59,925 nucleotides of DNA from the NCBI GenBank assembly GCA_018969385.1, contig JAGWYL010000003.1:1-59925 (forward strand), read 5' to 3'. The stretch's first letter is position 1. Each line of letters begins with the position of its first letter. Of the stretch, positions 1,562 through 20,154 are shown one piece after another. Origin of the DNA: Patescibacteria group bacterium. GTDB lineage: Bacteria; Patescibacteriota; Minisyncoccia; Phycocordibacterales; Phycocordibacteraceae. The notes under the pieces are model-generated. The model ran no database searches. It was not told the DNA's origin and saw only the letters and a list, made by a program, of their open reading frames with translations. Made by a program: the position numbers and the translations under genes.

Positions 1562-2818
1562 CTATCTTCCAGTCTTGAGCACGAGAACATCACGCTTCCC
1601 TTTCCGGACAAGCGCGTGGCCGCCCGGGAGGTCGCCTGCGTAGATTTTCTGGTCGGGGTCGGTAATGGTCATGCCGCCAAGCGTGATGCCCTTCCCTTCG
1701 ATGAGCCGCCGCGCGTCCGACTTCGATGTCGCGACCCCTCCCTCGACGAGCACCTCCGCGAGCGAGCGTCCGGTATCAAGGTCGGACCTTGATACGGTGA
1801 CGGAAGGAGCCTCGGCGAGGGCGACGGCGAGGGCGTCACGGGAAAGCTCCGTGAACGGCGTGTCGCCGAACAAGGCGTCCGTGGCCGCGGCCGCGAAGGC
1901 GGCCGCGGCGGGTCCGTGGACGGCTTCGGTGACGAGGCGCGCGAGCGTTTCCTGCGCCTCGCGCGCGGACGGATCCGCGGCATGCTTCTCCATGAGCGCC
2001 ATGATTTCTCCGATCGGCAGGTCGGTGTACACCATGAAATACCGCTCAAGTCCCGCATCAGGCAACTGCAGCCAGAACTGATAGAACCGGAAGGGCGACG
2101 TCTTCTTCGGGTCGAGCCACACGGGGTTGCCCTCGCTCTTGCCGAATTTCTTGCCGGCCGCGTCCGTGATGAGCGGTACGGTGAGAGCATACGTCTCGGC
2201 ACCGGTCTTCTTCCGAATGAGGTCGACGCCGGAAAGAAGATTCGTCCATTGGTCCGTGCCGCCCACCTGGAGGTCGCAGCCATACTTCGCATGGAGCATC
2301 AGGAAGTCGTAACCCTGGAGGAGCGCGTACGTGAACTCGGTAAAGGAGATGCTCTCGTCCGGCGTCGCAAGGCGCTTCGCGATGAGCTCGCGCTTCACGA
2401 GGTCGTTGACGCTGAAATGCTTCGCGACATCGCGGAGGAACGGGATGAGCTTCAGCTTTCCGAGCCAGTTCGCATTGTCCACCATCGTAAAGCGGGTCTG
2501 GTGGAGGATTCCTTTCAGCTGCTTCTTGAGCGCCTGCGCGTTCTTCGCGAGCGTTTTCTCGTCAAGGAGCGTCCGCTCCCCCACTTCGCGCGGGTCGCCT
2601 ATCATCCCCGTGCCGCCGCCGACGAGGAAGATGAGCTTGTGTCCCGCTTCCCCGAGGCGCTTCATGAGGAGGATGGGCACCAGGTGGCCCACGTGAAGCG
2701 AGTCGGCGGTCGGGTCGATGCCGAGGTACGCGGTCCGGGGCTTTCCCAATATGGTCTCAAGCGGCGCGGAGGTCTGTTCCGCGAGTCCGCGCGCCACGAG
2801 TTCTTCGGCGAATGTCAT
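1562..2818 (-). CDS. tyrS: Tyrosine--tRNA ligase
   Basis: YLGIDPTADSLHVGH, LQGYDF, QVGGTDQWTN, KFGKS motifs and C-terminal S4 domain; start at MTFAEEL. Confidence 0.97.
   Translation of the reverse strand: MTFAEELVARGLAEQTSAPLETILGKPRTAYLGIDPTADSLHVGHLVPILLMKRLGEAGHKLIFLVGGGTGMIGDPREVGERTLLDEKTLAKNAQALKKQLKGILHQTRFTMVDNANWLGKLKLIPFLRDVAKHFSVNDLVKRELIAKRLATPDESISFTEFTYALLQGYDFLMLHAKYGCDLQVGGTDQWTNLLSGVDLIRKKTGAETYALTVPLITDAAGKKFGKSEGNPVWLDPKKTSPFRFYQFWLQLPDAGLERYFMVYTDLPIGEIMALMEKHAADPSAREAQETLARLVTEAVHGPAAAAFAAAATDALFGDTPFTELSRDALAVALAEAPSVTVSRSDLDTGRSLAEVLVEGGVATSKSDARRLIEGKGITLGGMTITDPDQKIYAGDLPGGHALVRKGKRDVLVLKTGR
1773..1795. repeat. Perfect 11-bp-arm palindrome inside tyrS
   Basis: GTATCAAGGTC-G-GACCTTGATAC; encodes VSRSDLDT in frame. 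Confidence 0.7.
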
Positions 2819-2889
2819 ACGGGCTAGTATACCGCATTCGCCGATACGGGAATGCGCGGGCACGCAAGAAGCAGTAGTATACCGGTATC

Positions 2890-3561
2890 ATGAAGCGTCC
2901 ATTCGGCACCATTCTGAAATATGAGGACATGAAGGATGTTCCTGCCGCTGACAGCGGCGAGTCGCTCGTCGAAGTCGGCACGTATGACCCAGCCATCCTT
3001 GCCGAGTATGAGCAGCATGACATGCGTCCGTACACGGGCGAGCAGATATTCGTTCGCGACACGCTCGCACGGAAGCTGGCGAACGTTAATGACGCGCTTA
3101 TGCAAAGCGGATTGCGTCTGCGCGTGGTGTACGGCTATAGGCATCCGGAGGTGCAGACGCTTTATTTCAACCGACGCAAGGATGCACTGCGCAAGGAACG
3201 TGCGCGCCTCTCCGAAGATGAACTTACCGCACTTGCACACAACTACACTGCCGAGCCGTCCCTTGGCGGCCATCCGATGGGAGCGGCCGTCGACCTGACT
3301 ATGGCCGGAAAGGATGGCATGCCGGTTGATATGGGAACTGCCATATCGGACTTCAGCACGGAAAAGATCGTCACTGATGCAGCCGGCCTGACCAGCGAGC
3401 AGGTGCGGAATCGGCGCATGCTTCATGACGCGATGGTTGCCGAAGGATTCGCGCCATACTACGGGGAGTGGTGGCATTTCTCGTATGGAGACAAGGAGTG
3501 GGCGGCATTTTACGGTAGGCCATCCGCACTGTTCGCGCGGGTCAATTTCAAATTCCCGTAG
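2890..3561 (+). CDS. D-alanyl-D-alanine dipeptidase (VanX/DdpX-like, M15)
   Basis: VVYGYR, GGHPMGAAVDLT and EWWHFSYGD zinc-peptidase motifs. Confidence 0.88.
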   Translation: MKRPFGTILKYEDMKDVPAADSGESLVEVGTYDPAILAEYEQHDMRPYTGEQIFVRDTLARKLANVNDALMQSGLRLRVVYGYRHPEVQTLYFNRRKDALRKERARLSEDELTALAHNYTAEPSLGGHPMGAAVDLTMAGKDGMPVDMGTAISDFSTEKIVTDAAGLTSEQVRNRRMLHDAMVAEGFAPYYGEWWHFSYGDKEWAAFYGRPSALFARVNFKFP

Positions 3562-3576
3562 TACAGTAGTACGCAT

Positions 3577-4929
3577 ATGAAGTCAGTCGCAGATACTTGG
3601 AGTCTCGGTGACGGTTCAGTGAATACCGAGCGGTATTCCCCTTCTCTAGCGGGCACGCTGCTCGTCAACGACGGGACGGCTGTCCACGACGTCGCTGAAC
3701 TGGTTGCCCGGTACGGTTCTCCGCTTGAGATTTTCATTCCGGATACGCTTTCGACACGCGTGCGTGCGGTTCGTGACGCGTTTGATGCAGAGATTCGAGC
3801 CGCGGGATACCGCGGCTCTTTCGCATACCACTATCCGATGAAGGTGAATCAGCGGAAGGAGTTCGTCATGACTGCGGTTCGCGCGGGCGCGAACCTGGAA
3901 ACCTCGTCTCGCAACGAGCTCGCGCTCCTGAAGCGCGCATTCGATGACGGTACGCTCCCGAATTCGGTTCGTGTGCTCTGTAATGGCCCCAAGACGGAAG
4001 CATACCTCGCGCTTGCGCTCGAGATGCATCGCGAGGGGCGCAGCGTCACGCCGATAATCGAGAGCGAAGAGGAGCTGCGCGCCCTCGAAACGTATGACGG
4101 ACCCGTCGGCGTCCGTGCGGACATGAAGCTCAAGATAAGCTCTCATTGGGACAAGAAACATAACCGCTTCGGACTTCCTGAAGATCAGCTGCTCTCGCTT
4201 CCAGCGATACCGAATCTCACCATCGTTTCGTATCACATCAGCTCGCAGATCGAGTCGCTCGACGAAGTCGTGAAGCCGGTCGAGCACATCGTCCAGGTGT
4301 ATGCCGCCCTGCACAAAAGGAACCCCGGGCTTACCACCGTGAACATCGGCGGCGGCGCGGGCATCCCGTATAAGAAGAAGCCGCTCTATTCTATCGAGGA
4401 GCTCGCGGCGGGCGTTGTCCATGCGTGCGCAAGCGCCGCGAAGGCCAATGCAGTGGAGCAACCGAACATCATTTGCGAGTGGGGCCGCTTCATGGCGGCA
4501 CCGGCACAGCTTACGGTCTTCAAGATCATCGGCGCGAAGCGCATCGTCGATGCGCCGGCGAAAGCCTGGTACATCATAGACGGCAGTTTCATCACGGACC
4601 TTCCCGATACCTGGTCCATCCACCAGCGCTGGCATTTCGTTCCCGTCAACGGGCTTGGAAGTGCGGGTCAAACGCCGGTCTGGTTCGCGGGAAGTTCGTG
4701 CGACAGTGATGACGAATACGTACCGGACGAGGGCGCGATAATGATGCCGCCGCTTAGCGACTCCGCACTCTATGTAGCGGCACTCGACACGGGTGCATAT
4801 CAGGACTCTCTTTCTTCGCGGCACTGCCTCCTTTCCCATCCGCGCCGCATTGCCTTGGCGGGCGGACACGTGAGCGAGCACGATGCACCGGATACGCCGG
4901 TGTCCATTGGCGCTCTTTTCGGCTGGTGA
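3577..4929 (+). CDS. PLP-dependent fold-type III basic amino acid decarboxylase (arginine decarboxylase-like)
   Basis: YHYPMKVNQ PLP-lysine motif (SpeA-like YPxKxNQ), NIGGG, CEWGRF, SCDSDD, DTGAYQ. Confidence 0.8.
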   Translation: MKSVADTWSLGDGSVNTERYSPSLAGTLLVNDGTAVHDVAELVARYGSPLEIFIPDTLSTRVRAVRDAFDAEIRAAGYRGSFAYHYPMKVNQRKEFVMTAVRAGANLETSSRNELALLKRAFDDGTLPNSVRVLCNGPKTEAYLALALEMHREGRSVTPIIESEEELRALETYDGPVGVRADMKLKISSHWDKKHNRFGLPEDQLLSLPAIPNLTIVSYHISSQIESLDEVVKPVEHIVQVYAALHKRNPGLTTVNIGGGAGIPYKKKPLYSIEELAAGVVHACASAAKANAVEQPNIICEWGRFMAAPAQLTVFKIIGAKRIVDAPAKAWYIIDGSFITDLPDTWSIHQRWHFVPVNGLGSAGQTPVWFAGSSCDSDDEYVPDEGAIMMPPLSDSALYVAALDTGAYQDSLSSRHCLLSHPRRIALAGGHVSEHDAPDTPVSIGALFGW

Positions 4930-4946
4930 ACGGACCTGTCGGTAAA

Positions 4947-4975
4947 TTGACGGAGGTCATTTTTTGACTTATAAC
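4947..4975 (+). promoter_or_regulatory. Sigma70-type promoter for argS
   Basis: TTGACG-17 nt-TATAAC. Confidence 0.7.
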
Positions 4976-5039
4976 TATTGCGGACTGCCGGAATCGGCAT
5001 GTTCCATCCGCAACCAAGAACCAAGGAAAGGACAGCGCA

Positions 5040-6785
5040 ATGCTGGGCCAGATCGAAACAGCGCTCTCTAAGGCGCTCACTTCCGTGTTTGGCGTCGCGC
5101 ACAAGCCGACACTCACACGGACACCAAATCTCAAATTCGGCGACGTCGCATGGAATTGCATCCCCGCTGCGAAGGCGGCTGGCATTGAACCGGCGAGGAT
5201 GGCCACGGAGCTCGCCACCGAGCTCTCCGCCTCGCCGCTTATCAGTGCCGTCTCGACGCAGGGGCCATACCTGAATATCACGGTCGTTTCGAAGGTGCTC
5301 TTCGGGACTGCCGTGACGCTCTCTGGCGCGTCCGGGCGCATCCAGACGGAGCAGCCGAAACGTGTGATGGTGGAATACCTTTCCCCCAACACGAACAAGC
5401 CGCTTCACCTCGGGCACGTTCGTAACGGCGTGCTCGGCATGGCTTTGTCGAACATCCTGCATGCAGCCGGACATACGGTTATCAAGGCCGACCTGGTGAA
5501 CGACCGCGGCATTCACATCTGTAAGAGCATGCTCGCCTACCTGAAGACGGGAGCGAACATGACGCCTGAGTCGCTCGGCAAGAAGCCGGATCACTTCGTG
5601 GGCGACATGTACGTCAAGTACGACAAGCTTGAGAAGGCGGCGAAGGAAGATGGCACGGACAAGAAGCTCGAAGCCGAACTTACGCTCATGCTGCAGAAGT
5701 GGGAGGACGGCGACCCGGATACCATCGCTCTCTGGGAAAAGATGAACGGGTGGGTCTATGAAGGGTTCGAGAAGACCATGGAGACCTACGGCTTCCGCTT
5801 CGACAAGATGTATTACGAGTCCGGGCTGTACAAGCTCGGCAAGGACATCGTCGAAGACGGGCTTGCGCGCGGCATCTTCACGCGCTTGCCCGACGGAGCG
5901 GTCGCCTATGAGCTGCCAATCGATCAGTTCGGGACGAATCCGGACGGCGGCCCGCAGCTGTTCACGCTGCTCCGGGCGAACGGGACCTGCCTCTACACCA
6001 CGCAAGATCTGGCGACGGCGAAGCTCAAGTTCGAGGAGTTCGCCCTCGATCGTTCCATCTATGTGGTCGGCGACGAGCAGGACCAGCATTTCAAGAGCCT
6101 GTTCTCGGCTCTTGGTGCTCTCGGCTATGACTGGGCTCTCCAGTGTTCCCACTTCTCCTACGGGATGGTGGAACTTCCGGAGGGCCGCATGAAGTCGCGC
6201 GAAGGCACGGTCGTGGACGCTGATGACCTCTACAGCGACATGGTCAAACGGGCCAGCGCTGCAATCAGTCAGAAGAGCGGCGAGCAGGATGACGGGCAGC
6301 TTGCGCGGCGCGGGGAGACCCTCGCACTCGCAGCTATCAAGTTCTTCCTGCTCTACCCTGCACCGAAGACGACCATCGTCTACGATCCGGCCAAGTCGCT
6401 CGACTTCGAGGGCGAGACCGGGGCGTACTGCCTTTACGCGTATGCTCGCATCAAGAAGCTGTTGCAGACAGCGCGGATGCAGGGAATCTCCTGGTCGTCG
6501 CTGCGGTATCCTGCATCTCTCACCGATGACGACCGCCTACTGGCGCTCGAGCTCCTCGAGTTCCCGCAGACGGTCTTCAACGCAGCCGAAGTGGAAAAGC
6601 CGGCCCATGTCGCGCGCAAGGTCCTGAAGCTTTCCCGGACGCTTCATCGGTTCTATGCGAACCAGCCGGTGCTTACGAGTCCTCCGGCCGTCCGTGAAGC
6701 GCGCCTTGCGCTCCTCGAGGCGACCGCAAAGACGATCGCCTGGGGGCTGGAACTTCTCGGTATCGATGTTCTTGAGCAAATGTGA
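5040..6785 (+). CDS. argS: Arginine--tRNA ligase
   Basis: EYLSPNTNKPLHLGHVRN, NDRGIHICK, MKSREG, FEGETGAYCLYAYARI; purine-rich SD upstream. Confidence 0.96.
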   Translation: MLGQIETALSKALTSVFGVAHKPTLTRTPNLKFGDVAWNCIPAAKAAGIEPARMATELATELSASPLISAVSTQGPYLNITVVSKVLFGTAVTLSGASGRIQTEQPKRVMVEYLSPNTNKPLHLGHVRNGVLGMALSNILHAAGHTVIKADLVNDRGIHICKSMLAYLKTGANMTPESLGKKPDHFVGDMYVKYDKLEKAAKEDGTDKKLEAELTLMLQKWEDGDPDTIALWEKMNGWVYEGFEKTMETYGFRFDKMYYESGLYKLGKDIVEDGLARGIFTRLPDGAVAYELPIDQFGTNPDGGPQLFTLLRANGTCLYTTQDLATAKLKFEEFALDRSIYVVGDEQDQHFKSLFSALGALGYDWALQCSHFSYGMVELPEGRMKSREGTVVDADDLYSDMVKRASAAISQKSGEQDDGQLARRGETLALAAIKFFLLYPAPKTTIVYDPAKSLDFEGETGAYCLYAYARIKKLLQTARMQGISWSSLRYPASLTDDDRLLALELLEFPQTVFNAAEVEKPAHVARKVLKLSRTLHRFYANQPVLTSPPAVREARLALLEATAKTIAWGLELLGIDVLEQM

Positions 6786-6852
6786 CCGTTGAATTCTTGC
6801 CGGTCACGAACTGTGGCGTCCTACGGGGCGCCACTTTCTTTTGATACCTCTT

Positions 6853-6881
6853 TTGACAAATTCTCTGATATTTTATATTGT
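6853..6881 (+). promoter_or_regulatory. Probable promoter of the 205-aa gene
   Basis: TTGACA-17 nt-TATTGT in an AT-rich spacer. Confidence 0.5.
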
Positions 6882-6916
6882 TCGTCTGAAACTTCATAGC
6901 TGCGAGAGGTAACGCT

Positions 6917-7534
6917 ATGTCGCTTGTTCTTCCGACTGATGACGTCCCACGACGACCCCGCGGGAAGCCGTTGACGCCGGTCGAAGCACATCCCGTTTGG
7001 GAAGCCGGCCATTATTACGCGGTGAAGGGCGCGACCGAATGGTCACGCGTCGGATGGGAACTACTCGAGCGGCTCGCGCACCCCGAGGCCGCACGTCTGC
7101 TTTTCATCGACGATGTGCACGAACTCGACGAAGTTGGTACGCACGAACGGGATAATCCCCGCATCGACTTCAACCCGTCATCCACGCACACCGTCATGGA
7201 ATCCGAAGTCCTTGACGATGCCTACGAGGTGCTTGAACCGCTCATGCGGCTGCCGAAACGAAAGCGAGTACGGTATTCGGCCAACAAGAAGACCTGGCGG
7301 TGCTCCGGTCATCTGCTCATCCGCGATGACAGCATCCCCACCTGCCTCTTCTACGACCTTGGCCTGACAGTGCGCAAATGCCTTCTTGGCTATCGTTCGG
7401 CGGTCAACATCTTGCCGAAAGCGTACGAGCTTCAGCAGCGGCGGCTTCGGAAAGTGGTTAATAAGGCATTGCCGGGATTCGGACTTACGGTCATCCTGCA
7501 TGACCTCGACGGAAACTGGGAATATCTGGAATGA
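6917..7534 (+). CDS. Hypothetical protein, possibly Rossmann/HUP-like alpha/beta fold
   Basis: GAGG SD and own promoter; EAGHYY, LLFIDDVH, AVNILP segments. Confidence 0.65.
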   Translation: MSLVLPTDDVPRRPRGKPLTPVEAHPVWEAGHYYAVKGATEWSRVGWELLERLAHPEAARLLFIDDVHELDEVGTHERDNPRIDFNPSSTHTVMESEVLDDAYEVLEPLMRLPKRKRVRYSANKKTWRCSGHLLIRDDSIPTCLFYDLGLTVRKCLLGYRSAVNILPKAYELQQRRLRKVVNKALPGFGLTVILHDLDGNWEYLE

Positions 7535-7641
7535 CCACGATTCACATAGCAGTTTAGCGGCATGCATTTTTCCTCAATGCATGCCGTTACTTTTTATATG
7601 CGGATGCGTCACGGGCCCTGGTGCGGTAGTATGGTGCAATC

Positions 7642-8349
7642 ATGGATACGAAGAAGACCATAGGGGTCCTTGGCGGCATGGGCGCGGCCGCATCCGCTGA
7701 TTTCTATCAGCGGCTCGTCGAGCTTGCGCAGAAGGAATTCGGCGCGGTCAGGGATTCGGACTTCCCTCCCATGCTCATCTATAATCTTTCCATACGCGAT
7801 TTCGACGAGACCGGCGTCGTAGATGCTGACAGCGTCATCGCTCAGCTCGTCGCGGGTGTGCGGACACTTGAGTCCGCCGGTGCCGATTTCTTCGTCGTGC
7901 CCTGCAATACGGTACACCGCTTCGCGAAGGAGATGAGCGACGCGGTTTCCATCCCGCTCGTGAGCATCATCGACGCCACCGCTGACGCGGTACAGGACGA
8001 TGGCCTGAGGAAGGTCGGTATTCTGAGCTCACAGACGACGCGGAACGAATCGTTATATGAAAAGGCGCTCGCGTCTCGCGGCATAGCGGTGCTCCACGCG
8101 GATGATGCGGAGCAGGCGAAAATCAATGAGGTCATCGCGCACGTCATGCGGGGCACGAACGGCGCCGAGGACGTGGCGGCGCTTGCGGCAATCGCGAACC
8201 GCTTCAAAGCCGAGGGCGCTGAGGGCGTCGCGCTCGGCTGCACCGAATTGCCGCTCGCCATCACGCAAAAGGACGCCGCTCTTCCGCTCTATGGCTCGAC
8301 GGAAATCCTGGCCCGCGCCGCGCTCAAGTACTCGCTCGGGACTGCGTAG
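7642..8349 (+). CDS. Aspartate/glutamate racemase family protein (RacX/YgeA-like)
   Basis: GVLGGMG, PCNT and GCTE catalytic cysteine motifs. Confidence 0.92.
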   Translation: MDTKKTIGVLGGMGAAASADFYQRLVELAQKEFGAVRDSDFPPMLIYNLSIRDFDETGVVDADSVIAQLVAGVRTLESAGADFFVVPCNTVHRFAKEMSDAVSIPLVSIIDATADAVQDDGLRKVGILSSQTTRNESLYEKALASRGIAVLHADDAEQAKINEVIAHVMRGTNGAEDVAALAAIANRFKAEGAEGVALGCTELPLAITQKDAALPLYGSTEILARAALKYSLGTA

Positions 8350-8433
8350 CGGCGCAGCGTCTCGACAAGCAGGATATGGCGTGCCATAGTGCTCGCGGAG
8401 CGCTATTGCTTCGCACACATTGGAGTACGTCCG

Positions 8434-9446
8434 ATGCAACGAAATCAGCATCCTGTACAGCAGTTGGCGACGGGCGAGAAGCTGTCCGTCACCTCCTATA
8501 GATTCTCGAGTTCACAGCACGGGCCGAAAGTCTATCTCCAGGCGAATATCCACGGTCCTGAGGTGCTCGGCACCGCAGTGCTCACGAAGCTGCTTCCCTG
8601 GTTGCACGAAATGGAAACCAAGGATATGTGCGGTTCCGTGATAGTCGTGCCCTGCGCGAACCCCATGGCCGTCCAGCAGACGGCATACAACAGCATGATA
8701 GGGCGCTGGAACGGCAGGAGCGGCATGAACTGGAATCGCATCACACCCCTGTCGGCGAATGGAGCGGCCATCTGGAGGAGCGGCAGTTTTACGAAAGGAT
8801 CAAGAACGCTCCAAACCCGTCGATAGAGAAGAAGCTTGCTGCGACCTTGCGCGTCTTATCCTGGAGTGCCGATTACGTAGTGGATATCCACACGACGGGC
8901 AATGAGAGCATCGTGCACCTTTTCACGTTCTCGTGGATGGATGAGGCGTTCGCGAGACTCGGCTGCCCGGTACACATCCACATCGATGACGACGGACCGG
9001 CGGGCGCATTCGACGAATCCCATGTGCTTCCGTTCCTAAAATCGATGTCGAGGGACCTCATACCGAAGGCGTGCACGTGGGAGATCGGCTCGCATGGCAG
9101 GATTCCGTCCCAAACGCTGCTCGACCGCAGCGTCGTTCTCAAGCTATGGCTCCGTTCTGTCTGGGACGGAACCACTGCACAGTCTAATGCGCGGTCACTG
9201 TCGAAGCCGGCAGCATTCAAGCGGCTCGGGCATCTGCATGCGCCGTTCGGGGGCTACTACACGTGGCAGAAGAAACCCGGTAGCGCGGTCAAGGCTGGAG
9301 AGACGTATGCGTACGTTTTCCAACCCTGGAACGGGATACGCCGGAAGGCCGTCGCCGAGTTCGACTTCGTCTTGCTCGGCATCTATGGCGCCGACGCGAC
9401 CGCAGCGCACGAACAGATCGGCTGTTTTGCCGCCGACCCGGTGTAG
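8434..9446 (+). pseudogene. Succinylglutamate desuccinylase/aspartoacylase (M14-like) gene split by a frameshift
   Basis: First frame has QANIHGPE, PCANP and NWNR. The second frame continues with DYVVDIHT and a C-terminal biotinyl-like segment. Frames join around the C4 run at 8746-8749. Confidence 0.8.
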
Positions 9447-9582
9447 TACAAGGGGTCTTGTGCATATATGTTCCGTCTGCAATGGCTGATCCTCACGGGT
9501 CGGCCATTGTTCTATAAAAATCGGGTCCGATCCAGCATGATGCCGGAGTCGGACCCGAAACAGACCGTGTGTGGCCTGTACG

Positions 9583-10572
9583 TTACTTCACCCATGCCGT
9601 GCCGCTTCTCCCCGGAAGACGTCCTTGCTTCGAGAAGCTCAGACGTTCGAAGCATTCAGAGTTTCGGAGTGCTTCCGGCAGTCCGTCGAGCGGGACAATT
9701 GCACACGACGCGCCCCGGTTAGACGCTTCTGCGAGAAATGCGTCCAGCATAGCGGCGAGCGCTTCCTCGCCGTCGAAGCGCGAGTAAGCGACATTCGTCA
9801 TGACAGCGGTGCCTTCCTGGAACGAGTACAGCGCGCAGCCGTGTGTCGCCTCATCGACCGTAAAGACACGGTACTGCTCAAGAGTGTTCATGATACGCTC
9901 GCGGCCCTGATCCCCGGCGTAGTCTTCGCCGAGGAAGAGCTTGATTTCCGGTACATCAGTAAGCTCGGCCTTCCTGACGAACTTGAAGCGCCGCATGTCC
10001 GAGTGCACGAACGTTCCGGAGCCGCTCGCCGTCAGAAGTTCCGCGAGAAGCGCGTGTGGATGGTGCGCATCGAACAGATGAACTGTCTCCACCGCGCGTT
10101 CGCAGGCGTTCGCAGCAAGGTCGAGGGTCAGTGTCCAGTCCCGGCTCACTTTCCCGTCGGCAATAAGCTTACGGACTTCCGAAACCGAGGCGTTATTGAG
10201 AACCGTGCCGTCCGCGAGCGTGCAGTTGCCCTCGCACAGGAGGATGAGCTTGTGCAAATTGCACTCATTCGCGATACCGGCGACGTACTCCTTCTCGTTG
10301 CCCCGGACGACGGACTGGACATAGATGGAGTCGGGCAGACCGTTCCAGAACATAGCGTCCATGGCTTCCGCGACGATGACAGGAACGCCATTCTCAAGGA
10401 GAAGCTCGATGTCCTCGCTGAGGATGGCCATATCATCGGAGTGGATTTGCGCGATGCCGTACGGCATGATGAGCACGTTACGGCCGCGCGTGTTGCGCAG
10501 ACAGTGGAGCGCTGCGCGGACCGCTGCAGTGTCGTCGGCGTAGGCGCGTCGCCGCGCTTGCTTTTCAGACAT
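9583..10572 (-). CDS. Degenerate ArgA-like protein (amino-acid-kinase domain plus GNAT-like domain)
   Basis: VHLFDAHHPHALLAELLTASGSGTFV, then VRKAELTDVPEI; AAGGAG SD. Confidence 0.7.
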   Translation of the reverse strand: MSEKQARRRAYADDTAAVRAALHCLRNTRGRNVLIMPYGIAQIHSDDMAILSEDIELLLENGVPVIVAEAMDAMFWNGLPDSIYVQSVVRGNEKEYVAGIANECNLHKLILLCEGNCTLADGTVLNNASVSEVRKLIADGKVSRDWTLTLDLAANACERAVETVHLFDAHHPHALLAELLTASGSGTFVHSDMRRFKFVRKAELTDVPEIKLFLGEDYAGDQGRERIMNTLEQYRVFTVDEATHGCALYSFQEGTAVMTNVAYSRFDGEEALAAMLDAFLAEASNRGASCAIVPLDGLPEALRNSECFERLSFSKQGRLPGRSGTAWVK

Positions 10573-18209: not shown

Positions 18210-18510
18210 AGACGATTCCTGATAACCGTAATGCTTTCGATTCCGGTCCCCCGTGAGATAGGCAAAGCCGTCATCTCACGGGGGGTTGGGCCGGAATCGC
18301 TCCGTGAGATAGGCAAAGCCGCCATCTCACGGGGCAAGGCGGCTTCTGCGTGAGTGGAAGCCCGGACTCCCCCGTAATCATGGGATACCCGATGTCGCGA
18401 GAGCGGAGTCGGCATGAGGTTCGCCTTCGGGCGGACAAAGTAAGGTGGCACCGCGGAAATCCGCCCTTACGATACGAGCGCATTGCGTTCGCATCGCGAG
18501 GGCGGTTTTT
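18210..18510 (+). ncRNA. T-box riboswitch leader
   Basis: Stem III GTTCGCC-TTCG-GGCGGAC, T-box AAGGTGGCACCGCGG (18442-18456), antiterminator partner CGCCCTT, terminator CCGCCCT...AGGGCGG followed by T5 (18461-18510). The 5' boundary is estimated from the promoter. Confidence 0.85.
18251..18334 (+). repeat. Two tandem 33-bp hairpin repeats in the T-box leader
   Basis: CCGTGAGATAGGCAAAGCCG(T/C)CATCTCACGGGG at 18251-18283 and 18302-18334, one mismatch. Confidence 0.9.
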
Positions 18511-18549
18511 CATTTTGGAAACCGCATTGTCCTTTGGAAGGGTACTCAG

Positions 18550-19380
18550 ATGACAGAGGAATTCGTGTTCACCAATGAGCTCATCGCCGGGTCTGTAACG
18601 CTCCGTGGCGACGCGAAGGCGGTCATAAGCACCGTCGCATACGAGCATCCCGACGGGATGCCGGCGCGGTTCGCGGCAGGGCTCATTCCGGCATTCGTCC
18701 TCGCACGCCAATTGCGTGAGAGAGGCATCTTCACCATTGTCCGGATCATCGATCCGACGAGGGTGGCCAACTACTGCAACGGCTGGCAGATGGGGTCGGA
18801 TAAGCTTGACCAGGTCGTCGGTGAGCTCGCGGCGATGCTTGAGGATCGGATCAGCACTACCGAATCGTGCATGCCGCTCACGGGAACGAGCATCCGCCTC
18901 CTCCGAAGCTTGGCGAACGAGCTTGAGGAAGCCGATGGCGCTGTGGGCGAGATGCTTGAACGGTTGCGCTGCTCGGGTCGGCGACACGGAGGTGAGAATG
19001 GTGCGCGTAACGTTGCGCTTTACGCGGCTGCACACCCGTTCTCGTGGCTCGATCTCTTGCACGATTCGTTGTGGAGGGGTCGGTCTTATGAGGCATATCA
19101 GCACATAAACCTCATGAGCAAACCGGAGAGCCGCTTCAGCGTGATGCGCGCATATCTCCGCGACCGTCATCCGGAGATCGCATCGAAAGCGCCGAGGATC
19201 GACCTCGAGATGAAGGTCTGCAATACGCCTTGCTACCTTCGCCTCGACGATGAGCCGACCTTCGACGACTTCATGCGCGACGGTTACGACACGACGCTTG
19301 AGACGTATTACGCCTTACGAACGCGGTCGCAGAACCATCGTCGTGCCTATAACGACTTCAAGGTGCTTTCCCGTTACTGA
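18550..19380 (+). CDS. Hypothetical T-box-controlled protein, possibly class I aaRS/CDPS-like fold
   Basis: SD GGAAGG; directly after the T-box terminator and followed by its own terminator. Confidence 0.75.
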   Translation: MTEEFVFTNELIAGSVTLRGDAKAVISTVAYEHPDGMPARFAAGLIPAFVLARQLRERGIFTIVRIIDPTRVANYCNGWQMGSDKLDQVVGELAAMLEDRISTTESCMPLTGTSIRLLRSLANELEEADGAVGEMLERLRCSGRRHGGENGARNVALYAAAHPFSWLDLLHDSLWRGRSYEAYQHINLMSKPESRFSVMRAYLRDRHPEIASKAPRIDLEMKVCNTPCYLRLDDEPTFDDFMRDGYDTTLETYYALRTRSQNHRRAYNDFKVLSRY

Positions 19381-19461: not shown

Positions 19462-20154
19462 ATGAAGACACTCGGCATGCTCGGCGGCGTCGGTCCGCAG
19501 ACGACCGCGGAGACCTATCTTTCGGTCATAGAGGCGGTCCGCAAGGCCGGCCGCGACTCCTATCCCCCCATCGTCGTGTACAATCTCCCCTTTCCCTTCC
19601 GCGTCGAACGCGAAGCGATAGTGGAAGGAAGGAACGCGGAGCAGATGATTCCCTTCCTGACCGAGGGTGCTCGGGTTCTCGAACGTTCGGGTGCCGATTT
19701 CGGCATCCTTCCCTGCAATACGCTCCACGCTTACATCGAGGATGTCCGAAAGGCGTCCTCCGTCCCTTTCCTGTCCATACTTGAGGAAACGGCGCGCGCG
19801 CTTTCTGCGTTCGAACCGAAGACGATAGGATTCCTGGCGACACGCTCCACGCTCGCAAGCGGCATATACGAGCGCGCGCTCGCAGGGACCGGACGAGCGT
19901 TCGTCTATCCGGCGGAGGATGAACAGATGGCGCTTACGGAGATGATAGTGCGCCTCCTTGCGGGTTCCCCCGGATATGAAGAACGCGCGGTCGTGGAGAC
20001 GGTGGCGGAGTCGCTCGCCGCCCGCGGCGCAGACGTCATCCTGCTCGCCTGCACCGATATCCAGCTCGCGGCGAGACACGCTGACGTGCCCGTGCCGATA
20101 GTCGACACGATGGAAGTGCTTGGCAATGCGGCTGTTCGCGAACTCCTCGCCTGA
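19462..20154 (+). CDS. Second aspartate/glutamate racemase family protein
   Basis: GMLGGVGP, PCNT, ACTD motifs. Confidence 0.9.
   Translation: MKTLGMLGGVGPQTTAETYLSVIEAVRKAGRDSYPPIVVYNLPFPFRVEREAIVEGRNAEQMIPFLTEGARVLERSGADFGILPCNTLHAYIEDVRKASSVPFLSILEETARALSAFEPKTIGFLATRSTLASGIYERALAGTGRAFVYPAEDEQMALTEMIVRLLAGSPGYEERAVVETVAESLAARGADVILLACTDIQLAARHADVPVPIVDTMEVLGNAAVRELLA

Follow-up and report, generated by a model that had tools for sequence, protein, structure and literature searches.

A putative arginine-handling gene island around a second arginyl-tRNA synthetase in a small patescibacterial genome

In Corynebacterium and Mycobacterium, the gene for arginyl-tRNA synthetase (ArgRS) forms the argS–lysA operon, in which the synthetase adjoins a fold-III decarboxylase dependent on pyridoxal 5′-phosphate (PLP). 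Duplicated and transferred aminoacyl-tRNA synthetases (aaRS) include the mupirocin-resistant IleRS2 and the indolmycin-resistant TrpRS2, and GluQRS (YadB), MshC and the cyclodipeptide synthases (CDPS) are stand-alone paralogues of the class-I aaRS catalytic core. Here we compare these systems, together with the arginine deiminase (arc) islands of Saccharibacteria and other members of the Candidate Phyla Radiation (CPR, or Patescibacteria), with a block of seven genes at positions 2890–10572 of a 59,925-nucleotide stretch from a Patescibacteria group bacterium (JAGWYL010000003.1). This stretch, called the window below, is contig C24 of a genome of 757,562 bp in 32 contigs (G000), which is 92.6% complete. 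The block encodes a second ArgRS (ArgRS2), preceded by a putative arginine decarboxylase (ADC) and followed by a small protein with the fold of the ArgRS catalytic core (mini-ArgRS).

We hold it on balance probable that the region represents, in a form particular to its lineage, an ‘arginine island’ that recurs in Patescibacteria, built around one type of ArgRS (type B) and handling scavenged arginine in a genome unable to make it, and that the first gene of the block, for an M15 dipeptidase, is an unrelated passenger sharing the first transcription unit. The block comprises three sub-modules that recur elsewhere, all of them linked to type-B argS, i.e., ADC followed by ArgRS2 (A), mini-ArgRS with a racemase and an AstE-like deacylase (B), and a protein resembling N-acetylglutamate synthase (NAGS) (C). 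The new aspects are the dual ArgRS, the ADC–ArgRS2 pairing, the racemase–AstE trio and the link of the NAGS-like protein to type-B ArgRS. All seven genes, listed in an earlier note made from sequence alone, were located by open reading frame (ORF) listing and by Pfam and NCBIfam scans:

2890–3561, plus strand: zinc dipeptidase of the M15D (VanX/DdpX) family, 223 aa (PF01427, 70 bits), first gene of the series M15–ADC–ArgRS2
3577–4929, plus strand: short SpeA-like ADC, a fold-III PLP enzyme of 450 aa, best matched by SpeA models and structures
5040–6785, plus strand: ArgRS2, second full-length ArgRS, ‘type B’ (TIGR00456, 382 bits against a cut-off of 261.65)
6917–7534, plus strand: mini-ArgRS, 205 aa, with the ArgRS Rossmann catalytic-core fold by AlphaFold2 (AF2) model and structure comparison
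7642–8349, plus strand: Asp/Glu-type PLP-independent racemase, 235 aa (PF01177, 130 bits; TIGR00035, 168.8 against a cut-off of 93.1)
8434–9446, plus strand: AstE/AspA-family (M14-like) zinc deacylase, frameshifted (PF24827, 38 bits, N-terminal half)
9583–10572, minus strand: short NAGS-like protein, 329 aa, convergent with the AstE gene, with a truncated amino-acid-kinase domain and a GNAT-like domain

The earlier note had seen a single arginine and D-amino-acid cluster; its arginine theme is retained, and the single cluster is replaced by separately recurring sub-modules in several transcription units. Because these sub-modules recur in other genomes, most of the genes are clustered beyond chance, the M15 gene excepted, which shows no such linkage.

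The second ArgRS and the decarboxylase upstream of it

All three ArgRS domains are matched in ArgRS2, i.e., Add-1 (PF03485), the catalytic domain (PF00750) and DALR (PF05746). The other ArgRS of the genome (contig C11, 4871–6487) is 30–33% identical to ArgRS2 and represents the genus-wide type: a search of 30 genus genomes with ArgRS2 returned one match in each, at 28–34% identity, and only G176 holds an additional, 52% identical orthologue of ArgRS2. Both types also occur in Parcubacteria bacterium C7867-001 (G487, locus L066), which, besides an ArgRS2, has a C11-type copy (63% identity); we take this organism to be a close relative, given the identities of its type-A ArgRS (63%) and its tyrosyl-tRNA synthetase (TyrRS, 65%). 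In a quick maximum-likelihood tree, a few metagenome sequences group with the ArgRS2 proteins of G000, G176 and C7867-001 in a supported clade, and the genus-wide type forms a separate clade on a long branch; the row labelled as second ArgRS of G176, a faulty extraction with a very long branch, was disregarded. Both copies in G000 look active as far as sequence can tell, because the HIGH motif (HLGH) and the loop M384-x-S386-R387-x-G389 are invariant across the two types (alignment A5). The earlier note had listed the ArgRS and had overlooked that the genome has another, of a type unlike this surplus one.

The nearest relatives of ArgRS2 outside this clade, at 47–49% identity, are the ArgRS of other Patescibacteria classes and of genomes labelled Poribacteria. 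Type-B ArgRS was found in 24 of 300 sampled genomes of the phylum, with none among the sampled members of the class to which G000 belongs, and in a number of these 24 it was the only ArgRS candidate at first look. A metagenome scan with ArgRS2 returned mostly ordinary type-B ArgRS of other organisms, among which only contig L087 (see below) was informative for the island. As with IleRS2 and TrpRS2, G000 encodes a pair of full-length synthetases for a single amino acid, of which one is foreign to the lineage by its phylogeny; unlike in those cases, other CPR classes apparently have the foreign type as their only, ordinary ArgRS, and it also occurs in Poribacteria. Further copies were noted in two other genomes: G241 has two type-B-like ArgRS (C1, 627343–629031 and 798939–800558), and G376 has a further ArgRS-like match at 26% identity (C6, 50123–51646).

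In G000, G176 and G487, ADC lies directly upstream of ArgRS2, with the proteins diverged to about 50% identity, and neither gene is present in the 24 genus genomes in which the two were sought. Sub-module A is common to the same locus in the three genomes, flanked by tyrS and a kinase gene; the remaining cargo differs in each, an AstE-type deacylase being always present. Throughout, neighbouring genes in other genomes were called with a simple longest-ORF script, and related genomes were treated as kin and not as independent counts. The pairing recurs, without being general in the ADC family. In a genome of another class (G241), the row reads ADC, an M29-like gene, arginine deiminase (ADI) and type-B ArgRS, with ADC 3 kb from the synthetase.

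Other arginine genes take the position of ADC elsewhere. ADI is directly upstream of type-B ArgRS in G376, G360, G342 and G464 and one gene away in G241, and argG is directly upstream in G401. Contig L087, Parcubacteria-like and of 39% GC, reads LysA-like decarboxylase, ArgRS, GNAT, AstE-like, argG, argH, argE-like M20, NAGS-like, GNAT. Its LysA-like decarboxylase (7937–9431) is split into two overlapping ORFs, which may reflect a frameshift or an assembly error. The L087 layout, with a LysA-like enzyme upstream of type-B ArgRS, resembles the argS–lysA operon, as does the window in having ArgRS next to a fold-III PLP decarboxylase; in the window, however, the decarboxylase is SpeA-like and upstream of argS, and the real lysA lies on another contig. 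Polyamine genes were found linked to argS a second time, independently, in metagenome contigs of one further lineage (L128, L148, L130 and L137), in which a fold-III decarboxylase of 26% identity, a gene resembling that for deoxyhypusine synthase (DHS) and an agmatinase-like gene are directly upstream of ArgRS.

The best NCBIfam and Protein Data Bank (PDB) matches of ADC are SpeA models and structures (3NZQ, 3N2O and 3NZP, over the TIM-barrel half), and PF02784 matches at 77 bits. The SpeA equivalog cut-offs are not reached (NF003763, 181.8 against 369; TIGR01273, 176.8 against 624), and only residues 46–325 are matched. Four segments are invariant in 26 members of the ADC family: that of K89 (YHYPMKVNQ), GGG258–260, SCDSDD374–379 (C375 to D379) and DTGAYQ (Y408). 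By these sequence features ADC is a distinct short subfamily, predicted to be SpeA-like in its working. The family, of about 452 aa, occurs across Patescibacteria, with at least 544 confirmed species loci. After clustering, 80 of its loci had as recurrent neighbours agmatinase (13), DHS-like (9), agmatine deiminase (6) and DUF378 (18) genes, and the agmatine-enzyme neighbours give strong indirect support to arginine-to-agmatine conversion, the module that the earlier note had offered as one of two options.

That note had also favoured arginine over diaminopimelate (DAP) as substrate from the lysine motif, a preference that agrees with the SpeA matches and with the family neighbours; the motif itself is present and invariant in the family. 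Identity as a DAP decarboxylase was rejected: ADC scores 119.8 bits on the LysA model TIGR01048, below the cut-off of 297.9, and a true LysA on contig C29 scores 379.3 bits on the same model. Compared with SpeA and its agmatine-using partners (speA–speB/aguA), ADC shares the fold-III PLP family, the YPxKVNQ motif, the GGG loop and the C-terminal Cys/Asp motif, and its relatives in other CPR genomes adjoin agmatinase, agmatine deiminase or DHS-like genes. It differs in length (450 against about 620–660 aa), in being paired with ArgRS and in the lack of an agmatine-consuming enzyme in G000.

In the G000 genome, no agmatinase, agmatine deiminase or DHS-like enzyme was found, and agmatine is thus probably the end product and the terminal polyamine of the cell. 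Synthesis of putrescine or homospermidine was rejected on the same absences; an agmatine-based homospermidine route with the DHS-like SpeY has been described (PMC10407285). No permease of the APC family was found in the genome either, and arginine/agmatine antiport for acid resistance or energy was rejected on this ground.

A small protein with the fold of the ArgRS core, and its partners

The earlier note had regarded the 205-aa product of the fourth gene as an orphan. It has no Pfam or NCBIfam match, in agreement with that description; by its predicted fold it is an ArgRS catalytic core. The ORF is coding-like in its GC content by codon position (0.67/0.41/0.67). An AF2 model from five sequences (pLDDT 86, pTM 0.80) was compared with known structures by VIA-align, in which the 12 top matches were all ArgRS (Z 15–16.5, rmsd about 3 Å, about 160 of 183 residues), the best being 1BS2 (Z 16.5, rmsd 3.0 Å, 161 aa), followed by GluRS (about 13), CysRS and MetRS (about 12) and GluQRS (Z 11–12). 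Foldseek returned only class-I synthetases, with E from 2e-5 to 1e-3. The model spans ArgRS residues of about 110–440 with the insertions removed, and lacks the Add-1, insertion and DALR domains. Since the protein ends with the core and has no tRNA-binding domains, it is not a synthetase in the usual sense.

Homology of mini-ArgRS to ArgRS at the level of sequence was rejected, as the profile comparison was not significant. In the single stretch aligned by hhalign, the ArgRS signature D-G-T..Y.T-Q-D-L-G.A..K...I-Y-V-V..E-Q is placed against D-G..P-T-C..L-D.G-L-T..K...I-N-I-L-P..Y-E.E-Q of mini-ArgRS. Like GluQRS/YadB (PDB 1NZJ and 4A91), MshC and CDPS, mini-ArgRS is a small stand-alone class-I Rossmann core with no anticodon-binding domain. 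It differs from them in being nearest to ArgRS and not to GluRS, in its much smaller size (180–205 aa, the insertions gone), and in having (K/H)GPT at the HIGH position and no KMSKS motif that could be seen.

The mini-ArgRS family is rare, being represented by three metagenome proteins and in six of 400 other genomes of the phylum, and a search of the ESM Atlas gave no usable match. In three other CPR families, mini-ArgRS adjoins type-B ArgRS, usually with ADI; the lineages taken as independent for this link are f1, f191 and f211, with f219 having the trio away from its own argS and f156 being known from short contigs. The gene orders are ADI, ArgRS(B), ThrC-like, mini-ArgRS in G360; mini-ArgRS, ThrC-like, ArgRS(B), ADI in G342; ADI, ArgRS(B), mini-ArgRS in G464; and ADI, ArgRS(B), methyltransferase, M20, epimerase-like, ThrC-like, mini-ArgRS, M20 in G376. 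The block in the window thus shares with these arc islands a core of type-B ArgRS and mini-ArgRS, whereas it has ADC in place of ADI, an ArgRS that comes in addition to the genus-wide enzyme, no tRNA-Arg genes, and a racemase and AstE after mini-ArgRS instead of a ThrC-like enzyme.

The racemase that follows mini-ArgRS is, from its sequence, an intact Asp/Glu-type enzyme, with both catalytic cysteines present, i.e., C88 (PCNT) and C200 (GCTE). Its best structural match is the aspartate racemase of Pyrococcus (1JFL, 120 bits), and the CuyB model scores 178 against a cut-off of 190. Racemases of about 30–35% identity occur in three of 40 genus genomes, in each case away from the other cluster genes. 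In the window itself, a second Asp-type racemase (19462–20154, plus strand), 34% identical to the first, stands beside a TrpRS-like protein (18271–19170, minus strand). The layout of a small aaRS-like protein with a racemase is therefore present twice in the window, the two aaRS-like proteins having no mutual similarity; homology of mini-ArgRS to the TrpRS-like protein was rejected for this reason.

The third member of the trio starts at the ATG at 8434 and is broken at about 8740–8757, beside a CCCC run (8746–8749), where a –1 shift joins the halves as judged from intact homologues; no slippery heptamer, which would point to programmed frameshifting, was seen by eye at the break. The two halves are 54–56% and 38–39% identical to the intact gene of L087, and 52% and 36% identical to that of genome G467. 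The motifs H-x-x-E (HGPE) and, further on, DIHT are legible in the split reading frame. Among known structures, 3FMC and 8EIN match best, and the Pfam model Peptidase_M14 touches the N-terminal half weakly, below its cut-off (E 8e-4). The M14 desuccinylase-like hydrolase of the earlier note is thus a frameshifted member of the AstE/AspA family and not of the MpaA type, and the broken gene is either a pseudogene or an assembly error. The same order of mini-ArgRS, racemase (35% identical) and AstE as in the window is found in G467, with gaps of 67 and 9 nt.

Within the collection of papers searched, the literature gave nothing relevant on a short CPR ADC, a second ArgRS or a stand-alone ArgRS core. 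Mini-ArgRS is apparently undescribed. We advance only tentatively, as a proposal with rather little probability, that mini-ArgRS descends from the ArgRS core and is a new kind of enzyme or sensor working independently of tRNA, which would bind or activate arginine, an arginine-like or an acidic amino acid, and which would form with the racemase and the AstE or M20 deacylase (elsewhere the ThrC-like enzyme) an undescribed conversion or conjugation pathway that travels with a transferable type-B argS.

Such partners also invite comparison with natural-product pathways. In valanimycin biosynthesis, a decarboxylase (VlmD) acts with a SerRS paralogue (VlmL) and there is a tRNA-dependent step. The block could by analogy be a small-molecule biosynthesis or self-resistance cluster around an arginine-derived compound, with an amine from the decarboxylase, a ligase from the aaRS core, a racemase, and acyl transfer or deacylation, ArgRS2 being either a resistant target copy or the supplier of Arg-tRNA. 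An extra divergent aaRS is costly in a genome of 757 kb and has nonetheless been conserved in three species, and the partners of mini-ArgRS are all small-molecule enzymes (racemase, ThrC-like PLP enzyme, dipeptide-epimerase-like protein, and M20 and AstE deacylases). An exporter of the MacB/HlyD kind stands beside the island of G176, where a tripartite MacB/FtsX–ABC–HlyD set directly flanks ADC–ArgRS2–AstE (L006, 11699–15307; L003, 1977–5585). We nevertheless consider this explanation distinctly unlikely: type-B ArgRS is apparently the sole ArgRS in several other CPR genomes, among plain genes of arginine catabolism, so that it does not have to be a resistance copy; between ArgRS2 and the flanks, each of the three related genomes has its own cargo; no condensation, nonribosomal peptide synthetase, CDPS or Fem-type enzyme was seen; and AstE is broken in G000.

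The NAGS-like protein, the dipeptidase and the layout of the block

The last gene encodes a protein that matches the NCBIfam NAGS model at 69.6 bits (cut-off 344), over positions 194–368 of 441 only, and that has no Pfam match. Its AF2 model (pLDDT 88.7) is closest in Foldseek to the NAGS of N. gonorrhoeae in complex with CoA and L-Arg (3D2P; E 7.6e-19, TMq 0.67). The family comprises about 25 full-length clusters (310–335 aa) among 1.8 billion representatives, and canonical NAGS matches only residues of about 95–290. In alignment A2, the segments G-I-P-R-V-H and E-L-F-T-x-x-G-x-G-T are kept, whereas the acetyl-CoA loop of GNAT enzymes (Q/R-x-x-G-x-G/A) reads R-F/A-x-x-x-E/D, with no conserved glycines. 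In comparison with ArgA (N. gonorrhoeae NAGS, 3D2P and 2R8V), the protein has the amino-acid-kinase and GNAT folds, the long N-terminal helix and the E-L-x-T-x-x-G-x-G-T of the kinase C-lobe, and differs in its length (329 against about 440 aa), its truncated kinase N-lobe and its unconserved GNAT loop, and in standing in a genome that lacks the rest of the pathway. The protein has probably lost the acetyltransferase chemistry and kept the arginine-binding part, and is a candidate arginine sensor.

A full-length NAGS-like protein was present in one of 300 phylum genomes, G457, with the order TyrRS, NAGS-like, argE-like M20, type-B ArgRS, a 217-aa ORF, GNAT, M20. Both of the other located members (L087 and G457) are therefore within a few genes of type-B ArgRS. 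TyrRS likewise adjoins type-B ArgRS in G396, G457, C7867-001 and the window, a synteny that spans CPR classes. In the window, tyrS (1562–2863, minus strand) is the sole TyrRS gene of the genome; with the GTG start as listed, only 26 bp would separate it from the divergent M15 gene, and an ATG 16 codons downstream (about 2815) is the likelier start.

In the G000 genome, no argB, argG, argH or ADI gene was found, and the model for ornithine transcarbamylase (OTC) reaches 120 bits against a cut-off of 281. This fits an arginine auxotroph, as the earlier note had presumed, within the limit set by 92.6% completeness. Resynthesis of arginine from citrulline was rejected on the absence of argG and argH, unlike in L087 and G401, which have such genes.

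The catalytic residues of the M15 protein align with those of VanX (1R44), i.e., GGHPMGAAVD and EWWH with SSHSRGSAID and EWWH (H-x6-D and E-x-x-H). The scores are below the equivalog cut-offs of both VanX (NF033115, 54 against 320) and DdpX (NF007557, 64 against 176); the sequence places the protein in the family, with D-Ala-D-Ala identity falling short at the equivalog level. The enzyme is probably cytoplasmic. M15 genes are found in two of 40 genus genomes (G164 and G167; 32–35% identity) with no cluster genes within ±10 kb, and the only tie to the block is the 15-bp gap to the ADC gene.

This bears on the other option of the earlier note, salvage of the stem peptides of host peptidoglycan, in which M15 would cut D-Ala-D-Ala-type dipeptides, the M14-like hydrolase γ-D-Glu-DAP-type bonds, the racemase would convert D-Glu or D-Asp to the L-form, and LysA would turn DAP into lysine. 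The retention of every VanX catalytic residue, the intact Asp/Glu-type racemase, the weak Peptidase_M14 match of the N-terminal half of AstE, the presence of LysA in the genome and an L-Ala-D/L-Glu-epimerase-like gene at one mini-ArgRS locus would all suit it. We regard it as very unlikely, because M15 has no conserved link to the other cluster genes, the racemase and AstE travel with mini-ArgRS and arginine genes and not with murein genes, the hydrolase is of the AstE/AspA family (3FMC, 8EIN; Peptidase_M14 below cut-off) and frameshifted, and M15 and the racemase–AstE pair lie in different transcription units.

The units are suggested by the following sites, which come from consensus scans; the total number of terminator-like hairpins is no higher than in shuffled sequence:

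6813–6834, plus strand: terminator-like hairpin and T-tract, nine pairs (seven G–C), 28 nt past the ArgRS2 stop codon, a suggestive placement
6853–6881, plus strand: promoter-like site (TTGACA, 17 nt, TATTGT), 10 of 12 positions matching, upstream of the mini-ArgRS gene
7555–7589, plus strand: terminator-like hairpin and T-tract, 14 pairs, 3′ of the mini-ArgRS gene
8362–8390, plus strand: promoter-like site from the consensus scan, upstream of AstE

The layout suggests the units M15–ADC–ArgRS2, mini-ArgRS, racemase (perhaps with AstE), and the NAGS-like gene on the other strand. A single operon for the whole block was rejected on the strand of the last gene and on the hairpin and promoter-like sites, the scans being at chance level overall.

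The block might also be no functional unit at all, but a variable spot between tyrS and the kinase operon at which unrelated genes gather, with ArgRS2 a hitchhiker from a donor whose argS lay inside an arginine operon. Every block gene is accessory within the genus, the cargo varies among G000, G176 and G487, there are several transcription units, and AstE is broken. This we find unlikely, since ArgRS2 and ADC are intact and adjacent in three species despite a protein identity of about 50%, the order mini-ArgRS–racemase–AstE is kept in another CPR family, and the NAGS-like protein and mini-ArgRS are repeatedly beside type-B ArgRS in independent families. GC content is about 60% across the window, and the block is not distinct in it; its proteins are small and soluble-looking.

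Two further features outside the block were recorded. The 16S rRNA gene (G000, contig C25, 2–2470) spans 2,469 bp against a model of 1,533 positions, i.e., it has the large insertions typical of CPR. The window also contains a full-length match to the LOOT RNA motif of Rfam (RF03000; 54362–54482, minus strand; 81.9 bits against a gathering score of 46.4).

A proposed division of arginine between two fates

An arginine-handling island is the most economical reading of the block, its working core being agmatine synthesis together with the spare synthetase. The first unit (M15, ADC and ArgRS2) would divide arginine between two fates, ArgRS2 charging tRNA-Arg as an intact extra synthetase and ADC turning arginine into agmatine. 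Mini-ArgRS would most likely bind arginine or a close relative, and would work with the racemase and the AstE-like deacylase in an accessory step of salvage or conversion, and the NAGS-like protein would sense arginine.

Several observations weigh against this reading. ADC adjoins ArgRS in only four of 81 family loci, namely the window, G176, C7867-001 and a Nomurabacteria contig with the other ArgRS type, and, as neither an agmatine consumer nor an antiporter was found, any role of agmatine is conjectural. The sequence similarity of mini-ArgRS to ArgRS is not significant (hhalign probability 0.5%), its fold rests on a model from five sequences, its HIGH position is degenerate ((K/H)-G-P-T, in a register that was set manually), and no KMSKS-like loop was seen at its C-terminal end. 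The trio of G467 is far from the sole ArgRS of that genome, which is not of type B, and can therefore stand alone, and the frameshift in AstE may leave the trio of G000 non-functional. Hairpins behind ArgRS2 and mini-ArgRS divide the block into several transcription units, which leaves co-regulation no more than a possibility, and in a genome that is 92.6% complete the absence of a gene is not proof.

Patescibacteria live on scavenged metabolites, and the block bears on how they ration an essential amino acid. Here, about 1.7 kb of a 757-kb genome goes to a second ArgRS of foreign type, which is tied to ADC and has been kept in three species. Should the parts act separately, the locus is still a clean case of a minimal genome gaining a duplicate aaRS by transfer. 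If they work together, it would be a portable module for handling arginine and mini-ArgRS a new branch among the aaRS-core paralogues (GluQRS, MshC and CDPS), and if the mini-ArgRS pathway were true, ultra-small auxotrophs would possess a portable ‘arginine economy’ kit that comes with a spare synthetase.

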